The notes below the pieces were generated by a model. That model saw only the letters and a list, made by a program, of their open reading frames with translations, did no database searches and was not told the origin of the DNA. Of a stretch of DNA of 64,000 bases, positions 5,683 through 60,147 are shown one piece after another. Every line of letters begins with the position of its first letter. The stretch's first letter is position 1. The stretch is from an archaeon. Lineage in GTDB: Archaea; Nanobdellota; Nanobdellia; Pacearchaeales; GW2011-AR1. The translations under genes were made by a program, and so were the position numbers. The stretch spans positions 32,481 through 96,480 of the forward strand of contig DAOVXQ010000003.1 in the NCBI GenBank assembly GCA_030636025.1, read 5' to 3'.

Positions 5683-5806
5683 CTTCGCTAACCTAATAAC
5701 TAATATTTATATTTTATAATATCAATCTCTTTGAAGATGAGTGATTAAGAAGAATAAGATATAAATAAAAAGAAATTTTTGGTTAGTGAACTCCAAAAAT
5801 TTCATC
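5683..5806 (+). repeat. Dispersed intergenic repeat, copy 1 (TATA-like box plus hairpin)
   Basis: ...CTTCGCTAACCTAA...GAAGATGAGTGATTAAGAAGAATAAGATATAAATAAAAAGAAATTTTTGGTTAGTGAACTCCAAAAATTTCAT, with hairpin arms AAATTTTTGG/CCAAAAATTT. Confidence 0.8.
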
Positions 5807-13984: not shown

Positions 13985-14074
13985 ATGGTATTGTCGAGCA
14001 AAAGCAATTTCTTATTTATTTGTTTATTTATTTATTTACTAAAATTGCTTTTGGGAGCAGGATTGCTAATCCCG
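13985..14074 (+). pseudogene. tRNA-Ser fragment (a): D-arm remainder plus hairpin plus anticodon-arm-like sequence
   Basis: ATGGTATTGtCGAGCAAAAGCAATT-[33-nt AT loop]-AATTGCTTTTGGGAGCAGGATTGCTAATCCCG is homologous to fragment (b). It lacks an acceptor 5' strand. Confidence 0.6.
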
Positions 14075-14189
14075 CACTATAAAAATGGCACTATACTAAA
14101 AAATAGGGAAACTCAGATAATTATTTAAACTATAAAATACTTTATTCTATATGATTAAAATTAAATTAAAAGGAGGTTAAAAAATAAAT

Positions 14190-15517: not shown

Positions 15518-15541
15518 TCTCAATCTTTCTTTTATTTTTAA

Positions 15542-15682
15542 GCCGACATCGCATACCCCTCTGGGCATACCCAAAGGGCACAAGCAAGAGCCTCTGAGGA
15601 GGTAATGGTATTGCCGAGCAAAAGCAATTTTAGTATATAGATAAAAATAAGGAATTGCTTTTGGGAGCAGGATTGCTAATCC
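15542..15682 (+). pseudogene. tRNA-Ser fragment (b): 5' half with two insertions, ending after the anticodon loop
   Basis: GCCGACATCGCATA + 49-nt insertion (15556-15604) + ATGGTATTGC + hairpin CAAAAGCAATT/AATTGCTTTTG + CAGGA-TTGCTAA-TCCAG. No T arm or 3' acceptor follows. Confidence 0.65.
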
Positions 15683-15745
15683 AGTCAAACAAAATAGGGC
15701 AGTTAGTAAATAAATTCTTATAAATGATAATTATTTAGAAAATTC

Positions 15746-16240: not shown

Positions 16241-16266
16241 TCTTAAAATATTGTATATTTTCATAA

Positions 16267-16339
16267 GCCGACATCGCATACCCCTCTGGGCATACCCAAA
16301 GGGCACAAGCAAGAACCTCTAAGGAGGTAATGGTATTGC
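16267..16339 (+). pseudogene. tRNA-Ser fragment (c): acceptor 5' strand plus 49-nt insertion plus D-arm remainder
   Basis: Identical to (b) over GCCGACATCGCATA[49 nt]ATGGTATTGC except for two G-to-A differences in the insertion. It diverges after the D arm. Confidence 0.65.
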
Positions 16340-16395
16340 GGAAATATTCCATAACAATGGATTTTTAAGGCATATCTGCTTTGCAGATATGAAAA

Positions 16396-16476
16396 GCCGA
16401 CATCGCATAATGGTATTGCACTAGATTGCTAATCTAGACCCTTCGGGGTTCCCAGGTTCGATTCCTGGTGTCGGCG
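16396..16476 (+). tRNA. tRNA-Ser (GCT)
   Basis: Acceptor GCCGACA/TGTCGGC, discriminator G, anticodon arm CTAGA-TTGCTAA-TCTAG, long variable arm ACCCTTCGGGGTTC, T arm CCAGG-TTCGATT-CCTGG. Total 81 nt. Confidence 0.9.
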
Positions 16477-23609: not shown

Positions 23610-23709
23610 ATTAAACTTTCGTAACTTAAGTTTTGCAGACAAGTGATTAAGAAGAATAAGATATAAATAAAAAAGAAATTTTTGGTTAGTGAAACTCCAA
23701 AAATTTTAT
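23610..23709 (+). repeat. Dispersed intergenic repeat, copy 2
   Basis: ATTAAACTTTCGTAACTTAAG...GCAGACAAGTGATTAAGAAGAATAAGATATAAATAAAAAAGAAATTTTTGGTTAGTGAAACTCCAAAAATTTTAT. Confidence 0.8.
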
Positions 23710-32234: not shown

Positions 32235-32627
32235 ATGGCGATAGCGTGGGTTTCTCAATTTAATAATTTTGCATTTAGATTGCCAAATGATGAAAATGAA
32301 GGAGCATATAGAGAAGTAATAAAACAACAAGGAAATCTAGATAAAACCTACAAAGAAACCTTTCCTTTTAATGTATTTGGAGAACCTGATGACTTCAAAG
32401 GGTACAGTCAGTTATATATAAATCAAACTAGAAGAGAATTTTTTGATACAATTGATAGAGTTATTAAAGAAACCGGTATTTCAGTGAGTAGAATTAAGAA
32501 ACTACAAGGTTTAAGAAATAAACCAGGCATAAAAAAAGATTCTTGGCAAGTTTTATATAAATTAGTTTTCCCTGTATATAAAAAATTAAGAGAAATGGGT
32601 TATACTAATGCAGATTTAAGAATATAA
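32235..32627 (+). CDS. Hypothetical protein
   Basis: 130-aa ORF. Confidence 0.4.
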   Translation: MAIAWVSQFNNFAFRLPNDENEGAYREVIKQQGNLDKTYKETFPFNVFGEPDDFKGYSQLYINQTRREFFDTIDRVIKETGISVSRIKKLQGLRNKPGIKKDSWQVLYKLVFPVYKKLREMGYTNADLRI

Positions 32628-32672: not shown

Positions 32673-33119
32673 ATGAAAATTGAGCTTAAAAAATTTGGAT
32701 TTACAGATTATTTTCGAGTCCTTTTAATGACTCTGGACAAAAAATATTCTAAGGAACGTGATGACACTTTTTTTAGTTATTTTTTTAAAGGGTTAAAATC
32801 AGTATTCCCAAATGATTCTTATGAATTTTCAATTTTGGTAAATGAAAAATTTGCAGGAAATATAGGGCTTTTTAATCCTAAAAATGAGGTTTATGAATTA
32901 GGTTATATGGTTTTAAGAGATTATAGGATGAAAGGAATCGCTAGTAATGCCATTAACAAAATTATAAAAAAGGGATTTGAAGAATTAAATATTTCAAAGA
33001 TTTTTGCTATAACTGATTTCGAAAACAAAGAATCTCAGAAAGTTTTGAGAAAAAACAAATTTAAATTAGTGAAAAGAGATAAAACTAAAAAAGAATTAAT
33101 TTGGGAGAGGATAAAATGA
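32673..33119 (+). CDS. GNAT-family N-acetyltransferase
   Basis: 148 aa. ...YRMKGIASNAINKIIKKGF... is an acetyl-CoA-binding motif-A-like sequence (R/Q-x-x-G-x-A). Confidence 0.6.
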   Translation: MKIELKKFGFTDYFRVLLMTLDKKYSKERDDTFFSYFFKGLKSVFPNDSYEFSILVNEKFAGNIGLFNPKNEVYELGYMVLRDYRMKGIASNAINKIIKKGFEELNISKIFAITDFENKESQKVLRKNKFKLVKRDKTKKELIWERIK

Positions 33120-33595
33120 AAATCCGCAAAGCAACTAAAAAAGATATCTCTGAAATAATTAATCTACTAAAAGAATATGAAAAATATATGTATAAAATAG
33201 ATAATTCTAAAAATCCGTGGATAAAAAGAAAAAAGAATATTGATAAAAGAATAGAAAAAGATATTTTACAAGTTATTAAATCTAAAAATGATGAGATTGT
33301 TGTTGTAGAGATTGATAAATCTTTAGTGGGATTTATTTGGTTTTCTAAAGAAAAACCTAATTGGATTCATAAAATTAAATCAACAGGTAAAATAAATTAT
33401 ATGTTTGTATTGCCAAAGTTTAGAGGCAAAGGTATTTCATCAAAATTAAAAAATGAAACATTCAAATGGTTTAAAAAAAATCAAGTAAAATGGATAGGAT
33501 TAAATGTTCATAACAATAATCCAAAATCTCATAAAATATACAAAAAATGGGGCTTTGAAGATTATGAAATTGAAATGTGGAATGAGTTGAAATAA
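33116..33595 (+). CDS. GNAT-family N-acetyltransferase
   Basis: MKIRKATKKDISEII...PKFRGKGISSKLKNE... contains RGKGIS motif A. The ATG was chosen instead of the TTG used in the track. Confidence 0.6.
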   Translation: MKIRKATKKDISEIINLLKEYEKYMYKIDNSKNPWIKRKKNIDKRIEKDILQVIKSKNDEIVVVEIDKSLVGFIWFSKEKPNWIHKIKSTGKINYMFVLPKFRGKGISSKLKNETFKWFKKNQVKWIGLNVHNNNPKSHKIYKKWGFEDYEIEMWNELK

Positions 33596-33713: not shown

Positions 33714-34346
33714 ATGGTAGAAAATATTACCAACTTAGAAATAGAAATAATCCGTTTATATAAAAATAATTATCTTAAAGAGATTTACATAAGAGAGATG
33801 GCTAAATTACTTGAAAAAAGCCATGTTACTCTTCTTCCTCACTTAAAAAATCTTGAAAAAAGAAATATCCTAATTTCAAAAATTTCTGGTAAAAATAAAA
33901 ACTACAAACTAAATATGGGCAATAATCTATCTAAGGAATATATTTCTATGGCAGAAAAACAAGATACTATTTCCATAATAAAAAAAGAGTTTTTTATAAA
34001 AAAAATTTATGATGAAACTCTAAATTTAGATTTAAATGGGATTATGGCACTATTTGGGAGTTATGCATCTGGGACATATAATAAAAAGAGTGACATAGAT
34101 TTATTTTACATAGGTTCAATCACAGAAAATCAAAAAAAATCAATAAAAAACATGGGAAGACTTTACAAAAAACGCATTCATTTAAGTGTTATGAATTTAA
34201 ACCAATTCAAAAAATCTTTAAAAGAAAATATAATAATAACCAAAGAAATAATAAAAAACCACATAATCCTGCAAAATTCAGACACATTCATAAATTCATT
34301 ATGGAAATATTATAATGGAAAAAGAGAATTTAACATGGTGTTTTAA
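33714..34346 (+). CDS. Nucleotidyltransferase (MNT-type antitoxin) with N-terminal wHTH
   Basis: LFGSYASGTYNKKSDIDLFYIG (GSxxxG...DxD). Confidence 0.7.
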   Translation: MVENITNLEIEIIRLYKNNYLKEIYIREMAKLLEKSHVTLLPHLKNLEKRNILISKISGKNKNYKLNMGNNLSKEYISMAEKQDTISIIKKEFFIKKIYDETLNLDLNGIMALFGSYASGTYNKKSDIDLFYIGSITENQKKSIKNMGRLYKKRIHLSVMNLNQFKKSLKENIIITKEIIKNHIILQNSDTFINSLWKYYNGKREFNMVF

Positions 34347-34818
34347 AAAAGAAAGAGGATTAAAAATAATTGAAACTAATGAGAATCTTGTTAAAACATA
34401 TTTAAAAAAGTCAAAGAGTGCATTAAATATGCTTAATTCAGCAATTAGCAAAGATGAACTTGATTGGGTTTTAGACACTTCGTATTATGCAAAATATTTT
34501 TCAGTTTATGCTCTTTTTATGAAGATTGGAATTAAATGTGAAATACACGATTGCACAATATCTGCACTTAAGATATTTGTTGAAGAAGGAATTTGCACTA
34601 AAGAAATATATGAAGAACTTGAAAAATCCAAAGAATTAAGAATAAATGCATTATACTATGAAAAAGAATTTGGGAGGCAAGATATTATAGAAAGAGCAGA
34701 TAAAACTCCTGATTTTTGCTTAAAAATTGAAAAGATTATTAACAATATTACCAACGATGAGATTAATAGCATTAGAAATAAGTTTATTGATTTTGAAAAA
34801 ACACAAACCCCCCACTAA
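34315..34818 (+). CDS. HEPN-domain protein (toxin partner of MNT)
   Basis: It overlaps the MNT gene by 32 nt. The helical protein has LKKSKSALNMLNSAI...YYAKYFSVYALFMKIG, typical of the HEPN N-terminal helices. Confidence 0.6.
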   Translation: MEKENLTWCFKKERGLKIIETNENLVKTYLKKSKSALNMLNSAISKDELDWVLDTSYYAKYFSVYALFMKIGIKCEIHDCTISALKIFVEEGICTKEIYEELEKSKELRINALYYEKEFGRQDIIERADKTPDFCLKIEKIINNITNDEINSIRNKFIDFEKTQTPH

Positions 34819-35702
34819 GCAACCTTCTCTTTTTTCTTAGGATACAAATCAACATAATCTAAATTTTTTCCAATTTTCGGATGTTCTTTTTTAATTAAAT
34901 CAATCGCCTGTGTAATATCCATATCTTTTTGTGCAACTATTGCATGATATTTTTCCCTCGCCATTTTCAAACCAGTAGCTAAAACATCAACATCTGTTTC
35001 TGAAACTTTACAATGCTTTTCTAAATATTCATGAGTTTTTTTAATTCCACTCATCCCCTGACCCCGCATATCAAACTTATCCCTTCTTGCTAATTTTTTT
35101 AACCTCGCTGAATTTTGAGAAAGAAGCTGAAATTCCTTTGGAGACAAGTCACCAATTTTTCTGTTCCCACTAATTACATCGTCCAAAATTGGAGCAAGTG
35201 CTTCATACATTCTTGGCTTCTCGGTTTTCTCTAAATATTTTTTAGCACTTTTCCTATATTTTTCAAATCCCTCAACCTCATAACTATTATCCTCAACAAC
35301 TTTTTTTAAAGGAAAATATTTAATTTCATCTAAGACAGAATTAGGAACATAACTTTTCTTATAATTTTTTAAAATTCTTTCAACTTGTGGGGGTGAGCGT
35401 TTTATAAATGCAGAAGCATCCCCGATTAATGCAACTTTATTTTTATTTGGTTCTATATTACTTATCCTGCTCAAAATATCATCAACATTTATCTCCTCTG
35501 CAATAGCTTCTAATTTTTGTCCAGTAATAATTAAAACAATTCCACCCCCCACCAACCCCAACCCAATAAAAAACCAAACCTTACTAATCGTTGACGAAAT
35601 ATCAATAACTGCCCCAGTCAATCCAGCAAACGGCTGAAAAATAATTATAAAAATTCCCAATAAAATTAAACCAAAACCAAATTTTTTAAACCTGTTTTTC
35701 AT
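34815..35702 (-). CDS. Membrane protein (2 N-terminal TM helices) of unknown function
   Basis: 295-aa ORF. The first 9 codons and the promoter lie inside the 68-bp direct repeat. Confidence 0.55.
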   Translation of the reverse strand: MKNRFKKFGFGLILLGIFIIIFQPFAGLTGAVIDISSTISKVWFFIGLGLVGGGIVLIITGQKLEAIAEEINVDDILSRISNIEPNKNKVALIGDASAFIKRSPPQVERILKNYKKSYVPNSVLDEIKYFPLKKVVEDNSYEVEGFEKYRKSAKKYLEKTEKPRMYEALAPILDDVISGNRKIGDLSPKEFQLLSQNSARLKKLARRDKFDMRGQGMSGIKKTHEYLEKHCKVSETDVDVLATGLKMAREKYHAIVAQKDMDITQAIDLIKKEHPKIGKNLDYVDLYPKKKEKVA

Positions 35703-35742
35703 AAATAAAATTAGATGAATGTTTATTTAAATGTTTAGAAAA
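35675..35742. repeat. 68-bp direct repeat, left copy (island boundary)
   Basis: AACCAAATTTTTTAAACCTGTTTTTCATAAATAAAATTAGATGAATGTTTATTTAAATGTTTAGAAAA is identical by eye to 38262-38329. Confidence 0.9.
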
Positions 35743-36050
35743 TTATTTTAAACAAGTTTAATTCTTTAAAATATAAGAAATTCTATGCCTATGATACAAT
35801 TAAAATTATTTCTCATTTTAAAGGCGCATTTCTTTTCTTTACTAAATCATTTCTCTTACCTATTAAAAGAACAAAAAACATTAGCCCAAAAAATAATTCT
35901 TCTCGATAAAGTCAAGACTATCTGTCCGTAGGACCAAAAGTTCCCCCTTTTATATTTTAGGCTTTTTGAATTTTTCTTTTCAGGTGGGGAGGGGGTGGTG
36001 CCGACGACATTAAATTAGAGAGATTGCCCGACTTTTTTGCTTCTTTCTTT

Positions 36051-36497
36051 TTAAGAAAGAAGATGAGGAGTTCCGTTGTTTGCATAAGAATAAATGAGCC
36101 ACGAATTTCCTAGAGATCCACTTATAAAAACTACGCTTCCACCGCTTAAAGCTATTTCAATTTGTTTTTGTCCATGATTCTTAATGTGGCAACTCATTCC
36201 GTAAAACGGAGAACCGACATCTATATGCCCTTGACCTTGTTCATCCAAATAAATACTTCCATTATTCAGTTGAGCCTGAACAGAACCTACCATAAAATTC
36301 TGAACTAAAGGAGTATTTTTTCCTGCTCCAAGATCTCCACGAGATTTATTAATGCTACCCTCTATTTGATTATGACAATCTCTACAAATATCAGGCCTTA
36401 AATTTGATTGGTCATCATTGCCCATATATTTTTGAGCAACCAAGTGGTGAGTTGTTAACTTCTTTTCTTTTCCACAAAAACTACAAATTACAACCAT
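36051..36497 (-). CDS. HNH-like zinc-finger nuclease domain protein with beta-rich C-terminal domain
   Basis: CSFCGKEKKLTTHHLVAQKYMGNDDQSNLRPDICRDCHNQIE (CxxC...HH...N...CxxCH). Confidence 0.6.
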   Translation of the reverse strand: MVVICSFCGKEKKLTTHHLVAQKYMGNDDQSNLRPDICRDCHNQIEGSINKSRGDLGAGKNTPLVQNFMVGSVQAQLNNGSIYLDEQGQGHIDVGSPFYGMSCHIKNHGQKQIEIALSGGSVVFISGSLGNSWLIYSYANNGTPHLLS

Positions 36498-36503
36498 TTT
36501 ATT

Positions 36504-37481
36504 TTAATCCTCGATCTTTATATCTGCATATGAATTTTTTATAAATTCCAAGTATTTTTTGTGAATCTTTAAATTTCTCTTTTGTATTTCAATAAGTTTT
36601 TGAAGCCTCTTTACAAGGGGGTTTTCCAAAGTGTAATATTCTAGGGGGTTCTTTTTTCCAGGGTAGCGTGAAAAATTAAAGTGAGGTTCTATAAAAAAAT
36701 TCAAAGTTGAACTTACTGCATGAGAGGTTCCACCATAAACCATAGACTCTGCATGTCTAAGTGCGATATGCCTAAGAAATTCTCCAGTTACATTAAGTGC
36801 TTCTTTCTCCTCTTGTTCGCTTATTCCAATTCCCTCCTCTCTTTTTATTTTAGAAAAGGCCTTAATATTGCTAATCCATTCATTTGCAAGTTCTTCTTCT
36901 GTAAGTTTGTCTAACTTTTTAGCTTCAAACGTTTCTGCATTAAGTAATACCTTATCCATCTCCGAGAGGTTCTGGTCTAAAATTTCAAGATTGTCTGAAT
37001 AAATTTTTCCCTTTTCACTAACGCTCTTAATAATTCCTTCTGCCTCAATAACTTTTTTTTGATAGTCTTCTAGGTTTAATTTTTTAATCATAGGTATTTC
37101 TTTTAACTTGGGATTATTCTTTATAGCCTCCTTTAAATTAATAGTTTTTTTTAGGTTGGCTTTAATATCTTCGAGGTGTTTTTTAGAAGGGAAATGCCCA
37201 ACCTTTTCTTTTAATTCCTGTGATTTAAGAATCTCATTTAGCAAAAAGAGTGCTTTTGTGCTTTTCTCCACACTTTGTTGAAATGAAGATACAGAATTTG
37301 GGTATTTCTTATTTTCAAATAAAATTTTAGAGGATTCAAGATCTTCTTCTGCAATTTTTATTAATTCAAAAGCATAATCCACTTCTTTCTGATATTCTAG
37401 CCTTCTCTGGATATCTTCCTTTCCAGGCCCTTCTGGCATTTTCTTTAAAGCTTTTTCAACAGATTCTGGATCTGATATCAT
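36504..37481 (-). CDS. HEPN-domain protein with a ~170-aa coiled-coil insertion
   Basis: The N-terminal helices AEEDLESSKILFENKKYPNSVSSFQQSVEKSTKALFL and the C-terminal NFSRYPGKKNPLEYY match the HEPN (xxRYP) pattern. RHIALRH is also present. Confidence 0.55.
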   Translation of the reverse strand: MISDPESVEKALKKMPEGPGKEDIQRRLEYQKEVDYAFELIKIAEEDLESSKILFENKKYPNSVSSFQQSVEKSTKALFLLNEILKSQELKEKVGHFPSKKHLEDIKANLKKTINLKEAIKNNPKLKEIPMIKKLNLEDYQKKVIEAEGIIKSVSEKGKIYSDNLEILDQNLSEMDKVLLNAETFEAKKLDKLTEEELANEWISNIKAFSKIKREEGIGISEQEEKEALNVTGEFLRHIALRHAESMVYGGTSHAVSSTLNFFIEPHFNFSRYPGKKNPLEYYTLENPLVKRLQKLIEIQKRNLKIHKKYLEFIKNSYADIKIED

Positions 37482-37990
37482 GAACTTCTCTCCTTTTCTT
37501 CAGGATAAAAATATTTATCATGAATTTCTTTTACTCCCAAGTCACTTTTTGCTAATTTCATTTCCTTCATCATCTCATCTCCTTTTTCCCTAGTTAGTGG
37601 CTTGAAGGTTCTACCATAATCAATATAATCTGCATTTGTCCATTTTTCCAGAGAATCTTTTGATAATTTCAGGTTTATTTTTTCTTCATTTAATTTAACC
37701 CAAAACCTGAAAAAGACTAATATAAAAATTCCCAGAACAATAAAGTTAAAGCCCTTAAGTGAAATCTTTCCATTAATCAAATCATAAACCCCGGTTGCTA
37801 AGTAGCTTCCTAGAATTGCGAACAAAATTCCATACATAAAAAACTCTGATTCTCTTATTTTCTGCGTCAAAGATTTTTCATGATCATAATAAGATTCTAA
37901 AATTTTTCCTTTATCTTTTTTGCTTAAATACACTCTTCCGCCCTCGGGATTTTCACCCATTCTTTCAGTCCAAGATTTTTCTTCTTCCAT
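37478..37990 (-). CDS. Two-TM membrane protein (first gene of the island operon)
   Basis: 170 aa with TM helices FFMYGILFAILGSYLATGVY and FNFIVLGIFILVFFRFWV. ATGA overlap with the next gene. Confidence 0.5.
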   Translation of the reverse strand: MEEEKSWTERMGENPEGGRVYLSKKDKGKILESYYDHEKSLTQKIRESEFFMYGILFAILGSYLATGVYDLINGKISLKGFNFIVLGIFILVFFRFWVKLNEEKINLKLSKDSLEKWTNADYIDYGRTFKPLTREKGDEMMKEMKLAKSDLGVKEIHDKYFYPEEKERSS

Positions 37991-38261
37991 AAAATTCCGA
38001 ATGCTAACCCCTTAATATATTTATTTATAATGAACTCCCAAATGAAATAGAAAAATTTGGGTGTAACGAAGTGAAACCTTTTACCCTTTGTTATGAGAAA
38101 TTTTAATTTCGCGGGTTTTCTCGTCGGTTGGGTAAAAGAAGTTTTTCTCTGAAAACAAAGTTTTCAGCTATCTGTCCGAAGGGCGCGGGCTTATCTCTCC
38201 TATCGTTAGGGTGGGAAGAAAAGAAAAATTAAAATTTGGGCGAAGCCAAGCAACACCCTTT

Positions 38262-38329
38262 AACCAAATTTTTTAAACCTGTTTTTCATAAATAAAATTA
38301 GATGAATGTTTATTTAAATGTTTAGAAAA
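38262..38329. repeat. 68-bp direct repeat, right copy (overlaps the ppsA stop codon)
   Basis: Identical to 35675-35742. It contains a truncated copy of the start of gene 34815..35702 and ends at the last codons of ppsA. Confidence 0.9.
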
Positions 38330-41135
38330 CCTCGCTAAATTCATCCTCATTATTATCAAAACTATATTCATATTTATTTTCTTCTGGAACAGGGGGATTA
38401 TACACTCCGATATTATTATCTTCTGCCCCACTAACGCCCCCATCCTCTGATTTTTCAACAGGTTCTTCAACCCCCTCATTCTTTTCTTCAATCGGTTCTT
38501 CAATATCTTCTTGAACATCTTCTGCCCGAGCACCCTTAATCTCTTTTACTCTTTCTTCAACCCCCTCAAAATTATCAACAGGTTTAATTGGCTCTTGTTT
38601 CAATTCTTTTTCCAGAGCTTTTTTCTTTTTATAACATTCCTTACAACAAAGATTGTCCTGATTCTCCCTGGGCTTAAATGGAACAGTCGCCTCCTTCCCG
38701 CATTCAGAACAAATTATATTAAACCCCCATTTTTTCCTTTTAGGTTTCGCCTCAACAAACTTTTCCTTAAATTCAACAGGTTTTTCTTTCTCAAACTTTC
38801 TTTCATAAATCGGTTTAGGTTCCTCAATCTTTTCTTCAATCACTGGAGCAACTTCTTCCACAAAAGAATCTTCCAACTCTTTAATCAAAACAGAAACATC
38901 ATAACCAGCGTCAGCATTAACAGAAATAGAATCAATCCCATTCTTAAAAAGAAATTTCACTATTTCTTTTTTACTTCCTGCCTGCCCACAAATACTTGTT
39001 TCAATATTATATTTTTTGCAAACTTCAATAACTTTTTTTATCTGAGACAAAATTGCGGGATGAGACTCGTCATATAAATACTGAACATCATCATTGCCCC
39101 TATCAACACCCAATGTAAACTGAGTCAAATCATTTGTCCCAAAACTAACAAAATCAACATTCTCTTTGCAAATGTCTTCGATAATTTGAACAGAAGCAGG
39201 AGTTTCAATCATAACCCCGAACTGAATATTCGGCAATTTTATCTTATCAAAATACTCTTTTGCTTGTTTAATTTCTTCAACAGAAATAATCTGTGGGAAC
39301 ATAATCCCAATTTTTTTATCAGGATATTTCTCAGCAACTTGTTTAACCGCCAAAAGTTCTGCTTCAAATATTTTAAGATGCTTTAAACTAAATCTAATCC
39401 CGTGAAATCCCAGCATTGGATTAATTTCTTCTTCAGGTGCCCCCTCTAATGTTCCATATTCATCACTCCTAATATCAGAACTTCTTATCCAAACTAATTT
39501 AAAATACTCTGCAATTTTTTCAATCCCTTCTCTTAAAAGTTGAGTGTACTCTTCAAGTTTATTTTCCTTTTCATACTGCAAAGGATGCTTGCCAGAACTC
39601 GCAATAACTCCCTCCAACCTCATCAAACCAACAGAATCAATTTTAGATTCAGCAGCCCGTTCAGCAAAATCCGGCAAATCAACAATCACCTTTAATTTAA
39701 CTTTTGAAGTTTCTATGACCGGTTTAATTTCTGCCAAGGTGGTTTCAGCAACAGCACCCTCATAAATTTTCCCAGTGCTTCCATTAACAGTAATTTTCAT
39801 TCCATCTTTTAATCTCTCTGTCGCCCCATCTGCCCCGACAACAGCTGGAATCCCCATCTCTCGACTCACAATAGAAGCATGCGAAGTTATCCCTCCCTCG
39901 TCAGTAACAATGGCATTTGATTTCTGCATACTAACAACCATATCCGGATTAGTCATTTTTGTAACAAGAATATCTCCTTTTTTAATTTTAGAAAGGTCAT
40001 CCATTGTATTAATTATTTTAACAACCCCGACACCAATCCCAGGACTAGCCGGCTCTCCTTTCAAAATAACATTACCAGAAATCTTTCCTGTCTTCTCTTT
40101 GGCCTTCAAGGTTGTAATTGGTCTTGACTGCAAAATATAAACTTTATCTTCTTCAATACCAAACTCAATATCTTGTGGCTTTCCATAATGCTCTTCTAAT
40201 TTAATTGCATAATCTCCAACCTCAAGAATTTGTGCATTTGACAAAACCTGACTCCTACTTTTTTCTAAACTTAATTTAACAATCTCATTCTCTCCAGAAC
40301 CAGTTCTAACTATTGCAATTTTTTTATCTGCTGTTTTAACTTTCTGAACATGCAAATCTCTTGAAACAATATAATGGTCTGGTTTAATTTTACCAGAAAC
40401 AATGCCCTCACCCAAACCATAAACCGCCTCAATTACAATATTCTCATCTAAATTAACAGGGTCTCTGGAAAAAACAACACCCGACTTTTCTGAATCAACC
40501 ATTTTCTGAACAACAACTGCAAGCAAGGATTCCTCTTCCTTAAAGCCCTTTTTATTCCGATAATAAATTGCCCTCGCTGTATACAAACTCGCAAAACATT
40601 TTTTAATATATTCAATTAATTGATGGTCTCCTTTAACATTCAAAAAACTTTGTTGCTGTCCTGCAAAACTCGCATCTACTAAATCCTCTGTCGTTGCAGA
40701 ACTCCGAACAGAAACAAAAATCGGCTCCTGCGAATTTTTCAAAATAGTCAAAGCATCTGAAGAAACTCCTTTCTCATCAATTTTTTCAGTCCCCAAAATA
40801 TGATATGCCTCAAGAATTTCTTTTTTTAAATCATCAGGGATATTCTGCTCAATAATCATTTCCCGAATTTCTTTTGCTTTTTCAGTCAGCTCAGAAGTAT
40901 TTTCCATATCAATTCCAATAATAATATTCGCAATTCTTTCTTTCAATCCACTATTGCCAATAAAATACTCAAAAGACTGGGCAGTCGCAACAAATCCTTG
41001 TGGCACAGGAAATTTATGATTATACATCTCGCCCAGCGACGCCCCCTTCCCCCCGACAATATCAACATTCTTATTACTCAGCTCAGCAAACCACTTAATA
41101 TACTTGTCATCAAAATCAACCCTTTTTGTTTCCAT
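38322..41135 (-). CDS. ppsA: Phosphoenolpyruvate synthase (pyruvate, water dikinase) with a ~165-aa C-terminal zinc-ribbon/acidic extension
   Basis: 937 aa. ATP-grasp N-terminus (GGKGASLGEM), phosphohistidine region GGITSHASIVSREMGIPAV, and PEP-utilising TIM domain (GTNDLTQ). Extension: CSECGKEATVPFKPRENQDNLCCKECY plus an E/D-rich tail. Confidence 0.9.
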   Translation of the reverse strand: METKRVDFDDKYIKWFAELSNKNVDIVGGKGASLGEMYNHKFPVPQGFVATAQSFEYFIGNSGLKERIANIIIGIDMENTSELTEKAKEIREMIIEQNIPDDLKKEILEAYHILGTEKIDEKGVSSDALTILKNSQEPIFVSVRSSATTEDLVDASFAGQQQSFLNVKGDHQLIEYIKKCFASLYTARAIYYRNKKGFKEEESLLAVVVQKMVDSEKSGVVFSRDPVNLDENIVIEAVYGLGEGIVSGKIKPDHYIVSRDLHVQKVKTADKKIAIVRTGSGENEIVKLSLEKSRSQVLSNAQILEVGDYAIKLEEHYGKPQDIEFGIEEDKVYILQSRPITTLKAKEKTGKISGNVILKGEPASPGIGVGVVKIINTMDDLSKIKKGDILVTKMTNPDMVVSMQKSNAIVTDEGGITSHASIVSREMGIPAVVGADGATERLKDGMKITVNGSTGKIYEGAVAETTLAEIKPVIETSKVKLKVIVDLPDFAERAAESKIDSVGLMRLEGVIASSGKHPLQYEKENKLEEYTQLLREGIEKIAEYFKLVWIRSSDIRSDEYGTLEGAPEEEINPMLGFHGIRFSLKHLKIFEAELLAVKQVAEKYPDKKIGIMFPQIISVEEIKQAKEYFDKIKLPNIQFGVMIETPASVQIIEDICKENVDFVSFGTNDLTQFTLGVDRGNDDVQYLYDESHPAILSQIKKVIEVCKKYNIETSICGQAGSKKEIVKFLFKNGIDSISVNADAGYDVSVLIKELEDSFVEEVAPVIEEKIEEPKPIYERKFEKEKPVEFKEKFVEAKPKRKKWGFNIICSECGKEATVPFKPRENQDNLCCKECYKKKKALEKELKQEPIKPVDNFEGVEERVKEIKGARAEDVQEDIEEPIEEKNEGVEEPVEKSEDGGVSGAEDNNIGVYNPPVPEENKYEYSFDNNEDEFSEVF

Positions 41136-42347: not shown

Positions 42348-42498
42348 CTTCGCTAATCTAATTATCTATATCTTATAATATCGATCTCTTTGAAGATGAG
42401 AATTATAGTTTATACAAACTGCTCTTCTCTAAATCTCATAAGTTTTGAAAGATATAAACAAAAAGAAATTTTGGGTTAGTAAACTTCCAAAATAAATT
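42348..42498 (+). repeat. Dispersed intergenic repeat, copy 4 (divergent, with an extra ~45 nt)
   Basis: CTTCGCTAATCTAATTATC...ATCGATCTCTTTGAAGATGAG...GATATAAACAAAAAGAAATTTTGGGTTAGTAAACTTCCAAAATAAATT. Confidence 0.65.
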
Positions 42499-47458: not shown

Positions 47459-48339
47459 GGCTCTGTTGAAAATCTCCTAGCATACAAGATTTAAATTGTG
47501 TGCTATTCCCTTACAAAATATTTCTGTTCTCATTCCTGCAATCTTTTTGGCTTTAATCGTTCCACCATACTTTCTTTTTATCGCAGAAAATCCTGCCTCA
47601 ACATTACTTCTTAAATTATATTCCCTTTGATTCCAGTTTTTCATTTGCTTTTTTCTAAAATGCCCTCGATGAATATTCTTTTTTAATGGGATAAATGTTT
47701 GGATGGATTTCCAATAGCATAATTCATAAAGCCATTCAGCACAGTAACCCTTATCTCCAGAAAAGATTTTAACGTCGCTGATTCTCTTTAAAAGATATTT
47801 TACATCTTGCATATCATGTCTAGGGGTTGTTCTAATTCTCATCACTAAAAACTTTTTAGTTTTCACGTCCAGCAAGGCTGAAAGTTTGGTATAATCTTTT
47901 GGATTTGTTCCATTAATCCTTTTCAAATAATGAAACCCTGGATTTGTTTTGGAAAATCCTGTTCCATCAATAGCGACTTTTCCCGACGACAAACCTGCAG
48001 TTATCTTCAAAAGTTTTTGCCACAAACCAACAGGAATTCTTTTTCTACTTCTACACAATGCAGAATAAGTTGAACATTTTTGTCCAAACATATCTAAAGT
48101 TTTCTCAACTCTCCTTAAACTTAATTGACAAACTTGCATTATCAAAAGTCCAGAAATATGATTTTCAAGTTTATACTTTTTTGGTCCAAATCTATGCAAA
48201 AATTCAGGATATTTAATTTTTTTAAGCAACCGCTTAATTTTTATTTGAAGATTTCTTATATGTTTCATGTTTATCACCTCAGATAAACATAGTTTTCAGG
48301 GTAGATATATTTTACCCTGAAGACTTTTTCAACAGAGCC
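47459..48339 (-). mobile_element. Intact IS4/IS5-type insertion sequence (881 bp)
   Basis: 14-bp perfect terminal inverted repeats, GGCTCTGTTGAAAA (47459-47472) and TTTTCAACAGAGCC (48326-48339). 9-bp target duplication TAAATGGAC (47450-47458 and 48340-48348). Single transposase ORF. Confidence 0.85.
47477..48277 (-). CDS. DDE transposase (IS4/IS5 type)
   Basis: AIDGTGF (D), GDKGY (D) and YNLRSNVEAGFSAIK, which is the Y-x2-R-x3-E-x6-K signature. Confidence 0.85.
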   Translation of the reverse strand: MINMKHIRNLQIKIKRLLKKIKYPEFLHRFGPKKYKLENHISGLLIMQVCQLSLRRVEKTLDMFGQKCSTYSALCRSRKRIPVGLWQKLLKITAGLSSGKVAIDGTGFSKTNPGFHYLKRINGTNPKDYTKLSALLDVKTKKFLVMRIRTTPRHDMQDVKYLLKRISDVKIFSGDKGYCAEWLYELCYWKSIQTFIPLKKNIHRGHFRKKQMKNWNQREYNLRSNVEAGFSAIKRKYGGTIKAKKIAGMRTEIFCKGIAHNLNLVC

Positions 48340-48343
48340 TAAA

Positions 48344-48422
48344 TGGACCTACCAGAGATCGCGGCCTCTTTAATAAAAAGAGGTCATCCCCACAGGGAAA
48401 CTGCTGAATTCTCGGTGTAAAC
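48344..48422 (-). pseudogene. tRNA-Val 3'-half copy V3 (with 44-nt replacement in the T arm)
   Basis: TGGACCTACCAGAGATCG[CGGCCTCTTTAATAAAAAGAGGTCATCCCCACAGGGAAACTGCTG]AATTCTCGGTGTAAAC. The IS target duplication lies in its 3' end. Confidence 0.65.
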
Positions 48423-48506
48423 TAATGGGTCAAATTACTTCTTTTTTGAAAGAACAATATTTCACTTAACAGAAAGACATATAAATACAAAAAGTATACT
48501 TTTAGT

Positions 48507-48725
48507 ATGCAACTTAGAATTAAAGAAGAAACACACCTTGCAATTACAAAACTTAAAGAACAACTTTTGCTAGATTCTTATGATGATGTTATCTGGCATT
48601 TTATTGAACCTTTTCTTCCTTTGTCTAATTCAAGCGAAAGTTTAAGAAAAGAAGCCTTAGATGAATTTAAAAAAGGAGAAACAATTTCTTTTGAAGAAAT
48701 TTTAGCTGAGCATGAAAAAGATTGA
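48507..48725 (+). CDS. Putative antitoxin (partner of RelE-like toxin)
   Basis: 72-aa ORF overlapping the toxin gene by 14 nt. Confidence 0.45.
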   Translation: MQLRIKEETHLAITKLKEQLLLDSYDDVIWHFIEPFLPLSNSSESLRKEALDEFKKGETISFEEILAEHEKD

Positions 48726-48957
48726 ATTTTCTTCAAAAGCAAAAAAGAAATATTTTAAATTACCCTTTAATATAAGAAATTTTATTAATGCAAGATTAAA
48801 AGATTTACAAAATGAAAAAAGAGTTGATATTAAAAAATTACAGGGCTATAAAAGTTGTTTTAGATTAAGAATTGGCGGATATAGAATTTTATTAGAATTA
48901 CAAAATAATATCTGGATTGTATTTGATATAGATACTAGAAAAAAGGTTTATGGATAA
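48712..48957 (+). CDS. RelE/ParE-family toxin
   Basis: KKLQGYKSCFRLRIGGYRILLELQNNIWIVFDIDTRKKVY. Confidence 0.7.
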   Translation: MKKIEFSSKAKKKYFKLPFNIRNFINARLKDLQNEKRVDIKKLQGYKSCFRLRIGGYRILLELQNNIWIVFDIDTRKKVYG

Positions 48958-49035
48958 TTTATAATATATTCAAAGGTTAATAATTTAATAATTTACTAAT
49001 ATAGTTAGGGGGATGAATTTATATTTAAAAAAACA

Positions 49036-49113
49036 TGGACCTACGCGGGATCGCGGCCTCTTTAATAAAAAGAGGTCATCCCCACAGGGAAACTGCTGAA
49101 TACTCGGTGTAAA
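49036..49113 (-). pseudogene. tRNA-Val 3'-half copy V2 (with 44-nt replacement in the T arm)
   Basis: TGGACCTACGCGGGATCG[same 44 nt as V3]AATACTCGGTGTAAAT, followed by a ~40-nt block shared with V1. Confidence 0.65.
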
Positions 49114-49151
49114 TAATCATATACCTTTAGTAACTATTTTGGTAATAATCA

Positions 49152-50072
49152 TTATTTCCCATTAATCATAAATTTCCTAAAATAAACCTTCTCTTTCTTT
49201 GTTGTATGCCATGTTTCATCATCTCCGCCAAAGAACAAACTAAACATAACTTGATTAATGCCATAACTTTTTTTCTTCCTTAAATTTATCTTTCTCTCCA
49301 ATACTCTCTTTCCATTAACCCATGCGAAAATTGTGTCCTTCTTTTTTGGATTTTCGGAGAGTTTCATGCGCATTTTAATATTATACCATTTATTTGGCTC
49401 AATAAACACTTTTTTATTTTTGTATTTGTATATCTGGTCATCTCCCTGATTTGTTTTCCTATCTGGATAATACATATATTGCACAAGATATGCTTTATGA
49501 GATTCTTTTATTAGATCCCTACAATACCATTCATATTTTATAATTTCTTTACTAATAGTTCTCATTTGAGCTAATATTTTCTCTTTACTTTCATCGGACC
49601 TGACGATTTTTTTTAGCATCTTAAATTCTTTTGATAAAGGTCTTTTTTGAATTACTAATTTTTCAAAATCTGTCTCTCTCCACATTAACCTAGCAGAAAA
49701 ACCGTTTTGATATTGTTCTTGTGTTCCCCCACACCCCATTGAAGCTCCTCCGCCGAATCCTGGAAGCTTTCCCCCACGAACAAAATCAAAATTGTCTCCA
49801 AACATAATATCATATTCAAAAGTAGCATCGTCTAAATTTCTTGGAAAATTTAATCTCCAAAAAGAGCCCCCTTTGCTTTCAGTGTCTTTTGGAATTGTTA
49901 TTTCTAAAACTTTCTCGCCTTTCTTTTTTATAATTCTACATCTTTTTTCAGCAACACCCCTTCTTGGTTCAGAACCCCAATCTTTGATAAAAGTATCAAC
50001 ATCATATAAGCCAATCTTATGATCTGCAAAATCAATAACCTTTAAGTACAAATTTTCTTTTTTATTTTCCAT
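49152..50072 (-). CDS. Cassette ORF, possibly polysaccharide-lyase-like
   Basis: 306 aa. GGKLPGFGGG...GCGGT...NGFSARLMWRE is reminiscent of the PF14099-type lyase fold. This is a weak call. Confidence 0.35.
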   Translation of the reverse strand: MENKKENLYLKVIDFADHKIGLYDVDTFIKDWGSEPRRGVAEKRCRIIKKKGEKVLEITIPKDTESKGGSFWRLNFPRNLDDATFEYDIMFGDNFDFVRGGKLPGFGGGASMGCGGTQEQYQNGFSARLMWRETDFEKLVIQKRPLSKEFKMLKKIVRSDESKEKILAQMRTISKEIIKYEWYCRDLIKESHKAYLVQYMYYPDRKTNQGDDQIYKYKNKKVFIEPNKWYNIKMRMKLSENPKKKDTIFAWVNGKRVLERKINLRKKKSYGINQVMFSLFFGGDDETWHTTKKEKVYFRKFMINGK

Positions 50073-50104
50073 CTATTAAATGAGCTATTTAGACTTTAAA
50101 AACA

Positions 50105-50145
50105 TGGACCTACCAAGGATCGAACCTGGGAATACTCGGTGTAAA
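50105..50145 (-). pseudogene. tRNA-Val 3'-half copy V1
   Basis: TGGACCTACCAAGGATCGAACCTGGGAATACTCGGTGTAAAT has 1 mismatch to the intact gene over its 3' half and breaks in the anticodon loop. Confidence 0.75.
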
Positions 50146-50200
50146 TAATAATACCCTAAAGGTAACTATTTTAGTAATAAACTTTTGTGTTTATTTTAGT

Positions 50201-50938
50201 TCATATATCCTTACTATATCCTTTCCATTTCTTTTTAAATATTTTATAATAATTATCATCCCATATTTTTTTTTGTTTTTTCTTTCCTAAAACAAAACTA
50301 GAAGCTCCCCCCTCGTGATATACAAAAACCTCGGGATTAATATAAACATTATACTTTTTTTTATAAAGAGTAAACAATATATCTATATCTTCTCCAGAAG
50401 CAATTAGATACTCTTCTGAAAAACCTCCAATTTCGTCAAGTATTTTTTTCTTGAATAACAAAAACTCTCCCCAAACCCCCTGATTCCATCTCTTTAACTT
50501 TATCAAACTACTTGCTTGATTAAGGAGAGGTGACTTTTTTATTGATTTTATCCTTTTTGTTTCAATACCAAAATTATAATTCCATAAGGTTAATGGAGAA
50601 ACCATCCCACATTTTTTATCTTTTTCAAAAGGTTTTCTCAATTTTTTAAACCAACCTTTTGGAACTATGGTATCATTATTAGCAATACAAATAAACTTCC
50701 CAGAAGATAGTTCTATCCCCTTATTCCATGCCTTTGCTAAATCTGTTCTTTTATTAAATCTATAACAAATATCTGAAGATTTTTTTATAAAATTAATTGC
50801 TTTTTTGTCTTTTGAACCATTATCTATTAAGATTAGTTCATAATTACAATTAGTATATTGTCTAATACTTGAAATAAATCTTTTAGTTATTTCTAGGTTA
50901 TCTATCACAACTGCAATAATTGAAAGTTCTTTGTTCAT
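50201..50938 (-). CDS. Family 2 glycosyltransferase
   Basis: LSIIAVVIDNLEITKRFISSIRQYT...ELILIDNGSKD...NNDTIV. Confidence 0.75.
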   Translation of the reverse strand: MNKELSIIAVVIDNLEITKRFISSIRQYTNCNYELILIDNGSKDKKAINFIKKSSDICYRFNKRTDLAKAWNKGIELSSGKFICIANNDTIVPKGWFKKLRKPFEKDKKCGMVSPLTLWNYNFGIETKRIKSIKKSPLLNQASSLIKLKRWNQGVWGEFLLFKKKILDEIGGFSEEYLIASGEDIDILFTLYKKKYNVYINPEVFVYHEGGASSFVLGKKKQKKIWDDNYYKIFKKKWKGYSKDI

Positions 50939-50969
50939 CTTATTCTCTTTTTTTATTTATTATAAAAAA

Positions 50970-51040
50970 TGGACCTACCAGGGATCGAACCTGGGAATAC
51001 TCGGTGTAAACGAGTCAGTTTGCCACTAGCTTATAGGTCC
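50970..51040 (-). tRNA. tRNA-Val (TAC)
   Basis: Sense strand: GGACCTA TA AGCT AGTGGCA AACT G ACTCG TTTACAC CGAGT ATTC CCAGG TTCGATC CCTGG TAGGTCC A. Total 71 nt with one C-A mismatch in the D stem. Confidence 0.8.
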
Positions 51041-60031: not shown

Positions 60032-60072
60032 CGTTTGCCCTTATCTTAAATCAGATAATCCTAATAATTTTT

Positions 60073-60147
60073 ACAGATAAGCGATTAAAAATAATAAGAT
60101 ATAAATAAAAAGAAATTTTTGGATAGTAAAACTCCAAAAATTTCATA
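60073..60147 (+). repeat. Dispersed intergenic repeat, copy 5
   Basis: ACAGATAAGCGATTAAAAATAATAAGATATAAATAAAAAGAAATTTTTGGATAGTAAAACTCCAAAAATTTCAT. Confidence 0.8.

Follow-up and report, generated by a model that had tools for sequence, protein, structure and literature searches.

A candidate integrase-less mobile cassette between perfect 68-bp direct repeats in a DPANN archaeon

Introduction

DPANN archaea have tiny genomes and, to our knowledge, the ways in which they gain and shuffle accessory genes are poorly known. Elements that lack an integrase may still move: integrative mobile elements exploiting Xer (IMEX) such as CTX and TLC, and the pdif modules of Acinetobacter plasmids, rely on a Xer-type recombinase of the host, are bounded by 28-bp dif-like sites and accumulate in tandem beside the site. 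This report concerns a 2.5-kb island that is bracketed by a perfect 68-bp direct repeat and that lies in a 64-kb window (the whole stretch of DNA analysed here, positions 32,481 to 96,480 of contig DAOVXQ010000003.1) from an archaeon of the Pacearchaeales. On balance, and with only slightly better than even confidence, we regard the island as an integrase-less mobile cassette that was inserted or is excisable across the 68-mer and that is moved in trans by a tyrosine recombinase.

Integrons have been described in archaea, including Nanoarchaeota/DPANN genomes (Ghaly et al., 2022; PMC9668308). Archaeal integrative plasmids and proviruses of the pNOB8/pTN3/SNJ2 type have long att repeats that keep the flanking genes intact (PMC8371274), while the archaeal dif site has been reported not to be adjacent to xerA in Thermococcales (PMC2958812). 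The HEPN-T (PF05168) and AbiV HEPN families, to which one of the island proteins is compared below, were described by Anantharaman et al. (2013; PMC3710099).

A 68-bp direct repeat at the ppsA/membrane-gene junction

The two copies of the repeat and the genes that they join are located as follows (strand given where one applies).

35675-35742: copy 1 of the 68-bp direct repeat, with the working promoter and the first 9 codons of the 295-amino-acid (aa) membrane-protein gene
38262-38329: copy 2 (ppsA side), with the ppsA stop, a TATA-like box and the duplicated start of the membrane gene
34815-35702, minus strand: 295-aa membrane-protein gene
38322-41135, minus strand: ppsA

The two copies of the 68-mer (AACCAAATTTTTTAAACC...GTTTAGAAAA) are 100% identical, lie 2587 bp apart from start to start and bracket 2,519 bp, in agreement with the initial annotation of the window, which had been made from the sequence alone. 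A scan of the whole window found no second repeat of such length with perfect identity. On the minus strand each copy consists of the last two codons and the stop of ppsA, a TTTAAATA box and nine codons of the membrane gene, the composition first described; in the upstream copy (copy 2) these nine codons run into a stop at the island border and would read MKNRFKKFG. The proposal that an island had been inserted with duplication of the ppsA/membrane-gene junction holds, and the duplication is exact. We read copy 2 as a putative att-like junction.

The nearest relative of the membrane protein (P0034, 72% aa identity) is encoded on contig L029, where ppsA is 87% identical at the aa level over its catalytic part. 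This contig has one homologue of the 68-mer, 82% identical and directly upstream of the membrane gene; being single-copy there, it identifies the 68-mer as the membrane gene's own upstream region. In L029 ppsA lies 2.5 kb upstream of the membrane gene, and the interval holds an ABC transporter gene on the opposite strand and small open reading frames (ORFs), so it is a variable interval rather than an empty site. The search for an empty site that the initial annotation had suggested was negative, L029 being neither empty nor duplicated at this place. Of the features by which site-specific elements are recognized, identical end repeats derived from one target site are present (68 of 68 positions, with the single copy in L029); an integrase of the element's own was found neither in the island nor in the window, and no empty site was observed.

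Some features of the flanking genes may be recorded here. The 295-aa membrane protein has N-terminal transmembrane (TM) helices, a weak PIN_6-like region (E = 5e-4, under the cut-off) and just 16 homologues in a large database. The 3' part of ppsA (38322-38900) codes for a C-terminal extension that is long, acidic and of low complexity and that contains a treble-clef zinc finger (PF23477, 4e-10), and the matching region of L029 (1091-1207) contains three tandem 39-nt repeats. Adjoining the membrane gene, on the opposite strand, is an overlapping pair of MNT (210 aa, NTP_transf_2) and HEPN (167 aa) genes (33714-34818), next to which are two GNAT acetyltransferase genes (32673-33595); a similar MNT-HEPN pair precedes the HNH homologue of L027.

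State of the element in different assemblies

The GC content of the window is about 32%, and archaeal ribosomal proteins (L10e/L16, L35Ae, L21e) are encoded nearby; together with a HEPN homologue from a contig titled Candidatus Woesearchaeota (see below), these features assign the DNA to the Woesearchaeota-like DPANN archaea. The island proteins also occur on a 32-kb ENA scaffold (ZHAN22-2_SAMN18200493), on an NCBI contig of 97.9 kb and among the contigs that Logan assembled from SRR13892586. The ENA scaffold has the same integrated order as the window and differs from it by five single-nucleotide polymorphisms (SNPs), all outside the island; this agreement between two assemblies that are not identical was counted in favour of an integrated cassette. 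In the Logan assembly, whose k was taken to be 31, the island is a separate contig of 2,529 bp (L004, window 35713-38241) and the chromosomal contig ends 30 nt inside the 68-bp repeat, so this graph fits either an integrated island or an empty site plus a 2,587-bp circle. In either state the element shares 68 bp with the chromosome.

The separate Logan contig, together with several homologues that lie on contigs of 2.3-2.6 kb, invites the view that the element exists mostly as a free 2,587-bp circle with one 68-mer, beside an empty chromosomal site, and that the assemblers threaded the loop in. We consider this unlikely, since the two longer assemblies, 5 SNPs apart, both show the island integrated, the retrieved short contigs with homologues are ordinary linear fragments whose terminal genes are truncated, and the island has no replication gene. 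It would, moreover, change only the state of the element, for a circle with 68 bp in common with the chromosome would remain an integrative element.

Homology of the island's 5' end with units beside recombinase genes

The noncoding parts of the island, listed from the ppsA side, are these.

38241-38261, minus strand: boundary hairpin GGGTGTTGCTTGGCTTCGCCC, directly inside the repeat
38046-38245: R1, a conserved noncoding element of ~200 nt (covariance-model score 224.7 bits)
37991-38045, minus strand: AT-rich promoter region of the gene string, in which AAATATAT ends 24 nt before the ATG
36040-36062, minus strand: terminator-like hairpin CTTCTTTCTT-AAA-AAGAAAGAAG followed by CAAAAAAG, conserved in relatives
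35965-36039, minus strand: 3' noncoding segment with a C-rich tract (G-rich on the plus strand), 73% identical to L014 9007-9124
35918-35937, plus strand: second copy of CTATCTGTCCG, with a GUCC-GUA-GGAC hairpin
35743-35917: AT-rich tail of the island, without homologue and without strong palindrome

R1 contains the CTGAAAAC/GTTTTCAG hairpin, CTATCTGTCCG with a GUCC-GAA-GGGC hairpin, and a G-tract. The right flank of the island (38023-38243) aligns at 86.5% identity with L014 6737-6954 and at 82.6% with L021 7835-8027, and the adjoining coding DNA is less conserved (77-79%). An nhmmer profile and a covariance model of R1 (198 positions) retrieved exactly three strong members; a weak match (E = 0.13) was obtained in L023, between the recombinase gene and the first gene. 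R1 is found just upstream of different genes, namely the gene of the 170-aa TM protein, that of a 341-aa protein, and a string encoding a 121-aa protein, a methylase and a HinfI-type endonuclease.

The R1-side boundary of the island, GG^TTAAAGGGTG-hairpin-CCCAAATTTT (the caret marks the breakpoint), occupies the position equivalent to a G^TT breakpoint in L014 and L021, so that two independent lines, the boundary of the 68-mer and the breakpoint of the relatives, define the same 5' end. The succession found there (TT, hairpin, R1) has homologues at the 5' ends of the ~2.6-kb units in the two other loci, and the boundary hairpin, of a different sequence in the window, L014 and L021, stands in each at the same place after G^TT.

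In L014 and L021 the units opened by R1 end in branched palindromes. A 69-nt block of L021 (90% identical to L014 9231-9299) is contiguous with R1, whereas in L014 the two delimit a unit of 2,582 bp, R1 at its start and the block at its end, with 90 bp between the recombinase gene and the start of the unit; the arrangement is thus a circular permutation, with its breakpoint at ...TTTAATCGCGATG^TTCCCAGCG-hairpin-CCAAATTT. Two consecutive units are present in L021, with ends AACAGCGATTAAAG...CTTTAATCGCGATG^TT and AACATCGCGATTTAAAG...CTTTAAATCGCGATG^TT, the second carrying the methylase and the HinfI-type endonuclease, and L014 has the same type of end plus a simple GATTTAATCTGTG^TT beside the recombinase gene. 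Four comparative breakpoints in the relatives fall at G^TT, in arrays of two units (L021) and one unit (L014) beside the recombinase gene. The palindromic ends at L021 7716-7817, L021 10666-10827 and L014 9171-9300 have z-scores of -6.7, -8.3 and -3.9, respectively, when folded as single-stranded DNA; these sites are 102-166 nt long and attC-like, with outer inverted repeats of 14-17 nt (AACATCGCGATTTAAAG / CTTTAAATCGCGATGTT).

The tyrosine recombinases of L014, L021 and L023 (275-282 aa) are encoded divergently, 0.3-0.45 kb from the first gene of the module, and in L006 such a gene is 4.7 kb away. A recombinase gene within 5 kb at 4 of 10 independent loci is far above chance, as the gene is presumably present once in a genome of small size. 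In L023 (5645-11700) and L024 (4400-10400) there is a cassette-array-like region beside a XerA-like gene, which represents a second family of this style. C-rich tracts (CCCCCNCCC) flank or accompany a palindromic core (AACTAACATAATTAGTT) in each of its intergenic spaces, and each space folds into a branched palindrome of ~210-250 nt (z-scores of -4.1 and -3.7 for the junction elements). L024 has one extra unit of ~695 bp (2'-5' RNA ligase) when compared with L023, and in this region a unit with a 135-aa gene has the reverse orientation and is enclosed by repeats of 97 nt and perfect inverted repeats of 18 nt.

These units look like an integron-type cassette platform, yet they depart from a canonical integron in the score of the recombinases and in the core pattern of the end sites. 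It could be supposed that the island is an ordinary archaeal-type integron gene cassette at a secondary GTT site: its start, GG^TTAAAGG, is close to G^TTRRRY, the related units end in imperfect palindromes with outer AAC...GTT and G^TT breakpoints, one end site starts with GCCTAAC and matches RYYYAAC, and integrons are on record from Nanoarchaeota/DPANN genomes (PMC9668308). However, the 275-282-aa recombinases score 175-208 bits with the integron-integrase model TIGR02249, under its cut-off of 265 and with the alignment split in two, and fit XerA better (NCBIfam NF040815: 237 bits for L014 and 244 for L021, cut-off 220). A regular-expression search found no RYYYAAC...GTTRRRY pair in the island, L014, L021 or L023; the end sites are 102-166 nt long and branched, and the units have their own promoters, with R1 at the 5' end. 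The island itself has no attC-like palindrome, and integron insertion gives no 68-bp duplication. We regard an ordinary cassette as improbable.

A proposed mechanism and the points that weigh against it

According to the reading that we prefer, a tyrosine recombinase encoded elsewhere in the genome would excise the island across the two 68-mers, leaving a 2,587-bp circle with one 68-mer, and reinsertion would take place likewise. Such a Campbell-type exchange between the 68-bp segment of the circle and the chromosomal copy would be the simplest account of the structure. R1 and the 3' noncoding segment would act as arms or accessory part of the recombination site, possibly also as a small-RNA locus. 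The duplicated junction would leave ppsA and the membrane gene intact and would place the second copy of the membrane-gene promoter so as to read into R1, and the cargo would most likely be of the conflict type (addiction or defence).

Several observations weigh against this reading. A true empty site was not found, the interval in L029 being occupied by other genes, and a tblastn search detected no recombinase gene in the 64-kb window. The 3' end of the island lacks a palindromic end site such as those of the relatives, its last ~175 nt (the outer part of the left flank) match nothing, and no sequence like the 68-mer stands at the L014 and L021 junctions. A Campbell-type exchange leaves the circle's acquisition of the 68-mer unexplained, and duplication of 68 bp would not result from a simple crossover at G^TT. 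The model is built on three copies of R1 and a handful of junctions, and the proximity of recombinase genes could reflect ordinary integrated elements instead of a cassette platform.

Candidates for a counterpart of the relatives' end sites were considered and rejected. Inverted repeats at the island 3' end or in the 68-mer (11 of 12 positions over 12 nt, 15 of 19 over 19 nt) are within chance for DNA that is 80% AT, with fold z-scores of -1.6 to -2.4 for these regions, and although the last bases of the island, GAATTAAACTTGTTTAAAATAA, resemble GAAATTAACTTTGTTTAATCGCGATG in the L014 end site, so weak a match cannot be trusted in DNA this rich in AT.

The relatives' junctions without a 68-mer-like sequence would be explained if the repeat were a target duplication formed without an att circle, either through insertion at two GTT sites 66 bp apart in sister chromosomes and subsequent homologous exchange, or through repair of staggered breaks, possibly made by the HNH nuclease encoded in the island. 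Both boundaries of the repeat abut G^TT-type dinucleotides (GAGG^TTTT and TTGG^TT), but the base before copy 1 is A instead of G, and either two rare events or a cleavage stagger for which we know of no precedent would be needed. We judge this origin of the repeat to be very unlikely.

In a wider and more tentative extension of the trans-moved cassette, which we hold to be possible but the weaker bet, Woesearchaeota-type DPANN archaea may carry a new integron-like platform for gene capture, with XerA-type recombinases that lack the IntI domain, and the island may be an ectopic unit of it. In such a platform, units of ~1-3 kb would be split by branched palindromic sites of 100-220 nt and exchanged at G^TT; many units would open with R1, and the island of the window would have landed, or would shuttle, by way of the 68-bp att-like segment.

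Noncoding flanks and the nature of R1

The initial annotation had described both flanks as unusually GC-rich and structured, with a motif that occurs in each, and had suggested that a cis RNA might accompany the genes. The motif, CTATCTGTCCG, does occur exactly twice in the window (35918 and 38168; 0.21 occurrences expected), and the relatives keep both the CTTTTACCC/GGGTAAAAG helix and the CTGAAAAC/GTTTTCAG hairpin of the window, the latter with a symmetric one-base shortening in L014. Some reservations concern the general character of the flanks: their GC content reaches just about 38-40%, it falls to 21% in the outer 157 nt of the left flank (35743-35899), and single-sequence folding of both flanks on both strands gave z-scores of -0.5 to -1.4, which are not significant. 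Alignment of one flank with the other revealed nothing beyond an 11-mer and the G-tracts.

The DNA that follows the HEPN gene in L014 has 73% identity with the inner part (35965-36073) of the left flank, and the terminator-like hairpin is kept after the last gene in L014, L021 (twice) and L023. In the right flank, AAATATAT, which ends 24 nt before the ATG, indicates a leaderless-type start if the usual geometry of archaeal promoters applies. Since this promoter lies between R1 and the ATG, R1 is upstream of the promoter and is not a leader or 5' untranslated region of the operon.

R1 was also considered as coding sequence and rejected, as its copies share no ORF and their indels are not multiples of three and shift the frame. 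At the gathering score, the Rfam scan first proposed for the flanks found only four tRNAs in the window, and the best sub-threshold match within 35600-38400 had E >= 3. In the consensus of the three sequences the plus strand folds more stably than the gene strand (-29.4 vs -19.2 kcal/mol), with standard pairs in 177 of 187 cells as against 144 of 187. An argument from G·U pairs that the plus strand is the acting one was withdrawn, the variable pairs being only 5 for one strand and 3 for the other. The gene strand, for its part, has a conserved TATA-like CCAAATTTWAAWTTT at its start and a conserved T5 run at its end. The right flank is, in our interpretation of these alignments, a conserved and probably structured noncoding element; structure is indicated by the symmetric shortening of the CTGAAAAC/GTTTTCAG hairpin in L014, the exchange of an inner hairpin in L021 and the occurrence of the boundary hairpin in three sequence versions.

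R1 may primarily be a small-RNA gene of about 170-200 nt that travels with cassettes, and not a recombination arm. This is suggested by a conservation above that of the adjoining coding DNA, the lack of a conserved ORF, the conserved hairpins with the symmetric double indel, the terminal hairpin swapped in L021 (where the inner hairpin of R1 is replaced by another), the TATA-like start and T5 end on the gene strand, and the stronger consensus fold on the opposite one. It is tempered by the number of sequences (three), the few variable pairs, the non-significant single-sequence z-scores and the lack of a match to any Rfam family; in addition, long invariant blocks fit protein-binding DNA equally well. 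We keep the small-RNA gene as a possible, though not the favoured, function of R1, next to its proposed role as a recombination arm.

The island contig of the Logan assembly breaks off at 38241 and so leaves out the 20 nt next to the repeat; the homology of R1 to L014 and L021 stops at this place too (38243). This end may represent a population variant or a second context of R1 in the sample.

Cargo proteins

Three ORFs make up the cargo; they are tightly packed, with a 4-nt overlap and a 6-nt gap.

37478-37990, minus strand: TM protein of 170 aa, with two TM helices at about residues 50-72 and 74-102
36504-37481, minus strand: HEPN-T/AbiV-like protein of 325 aa, with a helical insert of about 140 aa
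36051-36497, minus strand: HNH nuclease of 148 aa, with CxxC..HH..N..CxxCH and a ~90-aa family-specific C-terminal domain

The 170-aa protein has the two hydrophobic helices first ascribed to it. Profile searches in Pfam, PADLOC, NCBIfam and PHROGs assigned it to no family, and homologues that are 67% identical are paired with HEPN in L006, L011 and L017.

For the second protein, a HEPN domain split by a coiled-coil insertion had been proposed. The N-terminal helices match Pfam HEPN (PF05168; 1.5e-9, 38.5 bits, cut-off 22), but the match is limited to residues 39-89 (profile positions 3-55); the C-terminal half with the RYP motif is missed by this profile, even when the insert is spliced out. 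A split HEPN is accordingly plausible but half shown. The insert (~140 aa) separates the N-terminal helices from the C-terminal PHF..RYP region, and E72, K76, H96, H267, R272, Y273 and P274 are invariant in 14 homologues. The Rx4-6H motif is not present, as R272 is invariant and no His follows within 4-6 residues; the invariant residues E72-x3-K76, H96 and H267 are the alternatives described for the AF0298 and AbiV types of HEPN (PMC3710099). An AlphaFold model of the protein is all-helical (predicted local distance difference test, pLDDT, 78); a fold search with this model gave no match in the Protein Data Bank (PDB) at E <= 0.001, and sequence matches in the PDB were 1o3u and 1wol, both weak. 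With an alternative His/Arg site of this kind, an RNase activity of the protein is possible.

The identification of the third protein as HNH-like was confirmed (Pfam HNH 2.2e-5, 24.9 bits, cut-off 21.4; HNH families of PHROGs down to 7e-6), and C5, C8, H17, H18, N32, C38, C41 and H42 are invariant in 18 homologues. The protein is predicted to act as a DNase. A C-terminal domain of ~90 aa is confined to this family (about 15-20 full-length clusters in 1.84 billion representatives), and the remaining matches of the protein cover the HNH motif alone; the AlphaFold model is poor (pLDDT 50). An RNA-guided nuclease of the IscB/HEARO type was examined and rejected: only the HNH motif aligns (20.8 bits, cut-off 175), the protein has 148 aa as against the 400-500 aa expected for RuvC plus HNH, Rfam gives no HEARO match, and R1 occurs without HNH in L014.

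Searches of NCBIfam, PADLOC and PHROGs yielded no system or family for the cargo beyond generic HNH. The PADLOC check of the island proposed with the initial annotation gave nothing usable, as PADLOC-DB 2.0 has no match for the HEPN or HNH protein and the TM protein reaches a negligible 15.8 bits (E = 0.0019) with the CARF_TM model. No homologue of HEPN, HNH or R1 was found in IMG/VR and in phage and plasmid collections.

Mosaic make-up of the gene string

The HEPN and HNH families are small (14 and 18 clusters, respectively, among 5.8 billion proteins). A tblastn search with the three proteins over all retrieved loci found HEPN and HNH together solely in the window, and the island genes recur at 60-89% identity in unrelated contexts. 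The HEPN gene accompanies the TM protein in L006, L011 and L017 and a 341-aa membrane protein in L014; in L015 it follows a 127-aa protein and precedes Fic, in L018 it follows an LSM protein, and in L005 it stands alone. One HEPN homologue, 74% identical, is on a contig titled Candidatus Woesearchaeota. In L011 (1-9000 of a 183-kb contig) an integrated plasmid-like element carries the TM170-HEPN pair, with 60-67% identity, at its edge; the element also encodes a primase-polymerase of 692 aa, an HTH protein and part of an integrase (166 aa).

The HNH gene is the last gene in all settings, behind five unrelated sets of upstream genes. Elsewhere its partners are a 193-aa protein (L021), a 287-aa and a 69-aa protein (L023 to L026), an MNT and HEPN-like pair (L027) and a 136-aa protein (L028). 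Alignment with L014 shows the HNH gene as 425 nt (36074-36498) that L014 lacks; they follow the stop codon of HEPN and precede the conserved terminator-like hairpin, into which the last 8 HNH codons run. A clean insertion of this kind means that the gene string is a mosaic and not a conserved system, and its presence or absence between stop codon and terminator is the behaviour of a free-standing, homing-type gene. By this alignment, the HNH gene was the last to be added to the cargo.

The initial annotation had presented the three genes as one operon, an uncharacterized defence or addiction module, that is, a dedicated three-component system with a membrane sensor/effector, a HEPN RNase and an HNH DNase under a cis RNA. 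The tight packing (4-nt overlap, 6-nt gap) and the recurrence of the TM-HEPN pair in L006, L011 and L017 agree with this, HEPN and HNH are classic conflict domains (PMC3710099), and the relatives adjoin a restriction-modification pair, Fic and MNT-HEPN. The distribution of the genes does not: HEPN and HNH are joined only in the window, HNH is a later insertion with varied partners, HEPN occurs without the TM protein in L005, L014, L015 and L018, PADLOC gave nothing usable, and R1, which is upstream of the promoter and precedes unrelated genes elsewhere, is not specific to this operon. From these comparisons a fixed three-part system is not supported, and we think a dedicated system of this kind quite unlikely. 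A role of the cargo in defence or addiction is nevertheless plausible by association with the conflict-type neighbours of the relatives (type II restriction-modification pair, Fic, MNT-HEPN).

Other repeats in the window

The tRNA-Val gene (50970-51040, minus strand) is adjoined by three partial copies of the 3' part of the tRNA, arranged as direct repeats (window 48343-51040). The copy at 50099-50145 is 96% identical to that of the gene, and those at 49035-49113 and 48343-48421 share 95% identity. Repeats of 47-79 nt (95-96% identical) thereby bound the inserts, and each pair of repeats brackets one insert without integrase. The inserts encode, in turn, a GT2 glycosyltransferase (50201-50938) and a polysaccharide lyase 14 (49152-50072), and the third is a pair encoding a 72-aa and a ParE-like 81-aa protein (48507-48957). 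A DDE transposase ORF (47477-48277) lies beyond them. With three such mini-islands in the window, integrase-less structures bounded by repeats are seen to recur in this genome.

An element of ~73 nt (AAGATATAAATAAAAAGAAATTTTTGGTTAGTGAACTCCAAAAATTT), a TATA-like box followed by a hairpin, is present four times (5730-5802, 23632-23704, 42423-42495 and 60070-60142), at 64-82% identity and about 18 kb apart. A GC-rich repeat of 96 nt (15522-15617 and 16247-16342, 89% identical) lies just upstream of tRNA-Ser (16396-16476), an area with more repeated blocks (14043-14103 / 15653-15713; 13512 / 15501 / 16224); these may be duplicated small-RNA or tRNA-related genes.

Significance

The ends of the island are of more interest than its genes. 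If the cassette reading is true, gene capture of the integron type may not need an enzyme of the IntI type, a XerA-type recombinase resembling the resolvase of chromosome dimers could serve for it, and the palindromic sites, the G^TT junctions and R1 form a concrete set of substrates. The island also defines two very small families that move alone, a HEPN family marked by its large helical insert and an HNH family whose C-terminal domain is unique, and both may be conflict genes. On the most modest reading, three adjacent conflict-type domains do not in this case make a system, and a tempting over-interpretation is corrected.

Comparison with known systems

The units of the relatives resemble integron cassettes in several respects. 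Like these, they are units of one to three genes beside a divergent tyrosine recombinase gene, they have imperfect-palindrome ends and G^TT breakpoints, their cargo is rich in genes of the toxin-antitoxin, restriction and acetyltransferase types, and their content varies between strains (L023 vs L024). Unlike integrons, the relatives have XerA-like recombinases without the extra domain of IntI, sites of 100-220 nt that are branched and lack the R''/R' consensus, and units that bring their own promoters as well as a conserved 5' element of ~200 nt. The island of the window departs further from integron cassettes, in that it has no palindrome, is bracketed by a 68-bp target duplication and lies outside any array.

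With the Xer-exploiting elements and the pdif modules, the cassette units share the integrase-less state, the presumed reliance on a Xer-type recombinase and the tandem stacking; a dif-like 11-6-11 site, in contrast, was not identified here.

At the level of the cargo, the HEPN protein is like the HEPN-T/AbiV families in its N-terminal helices, which match PF05168, in its Ex3K motif and in its conserved Arg, the His of Rx4-6H being missing; it differs from them by the ~140-aa helical insert, by the unmatched C-terminal half and by the lack of a nucleotidyltransferase partner in the island. The HNH gene resembles free-standing HNH homing endonuclease genes, being small, with complete zinc and catalytic motifs, and showing a clean presence/absence insertion between stop codon and terminator as the last gene; its unique ~90-aa C-terminal domain and the lack of phage or plasmid homologues set it apart.

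Finally, the island differs from archaeal integrative elements of the pNOB8/pTN3/SNJ2 type in having neither integrase nor replication gene, in its size of only 2.5 kb and in a target that is a junction of protein genes and not a tRNA gene. It is like them in its exact direct repeats of tens of base pairs and in a repeat that restores the interrupted end of a gene; their Campbell-type excision to a circle is what is proposed for the island, and the TM-HEPN pair of L011 rides on an element of this integrative type.

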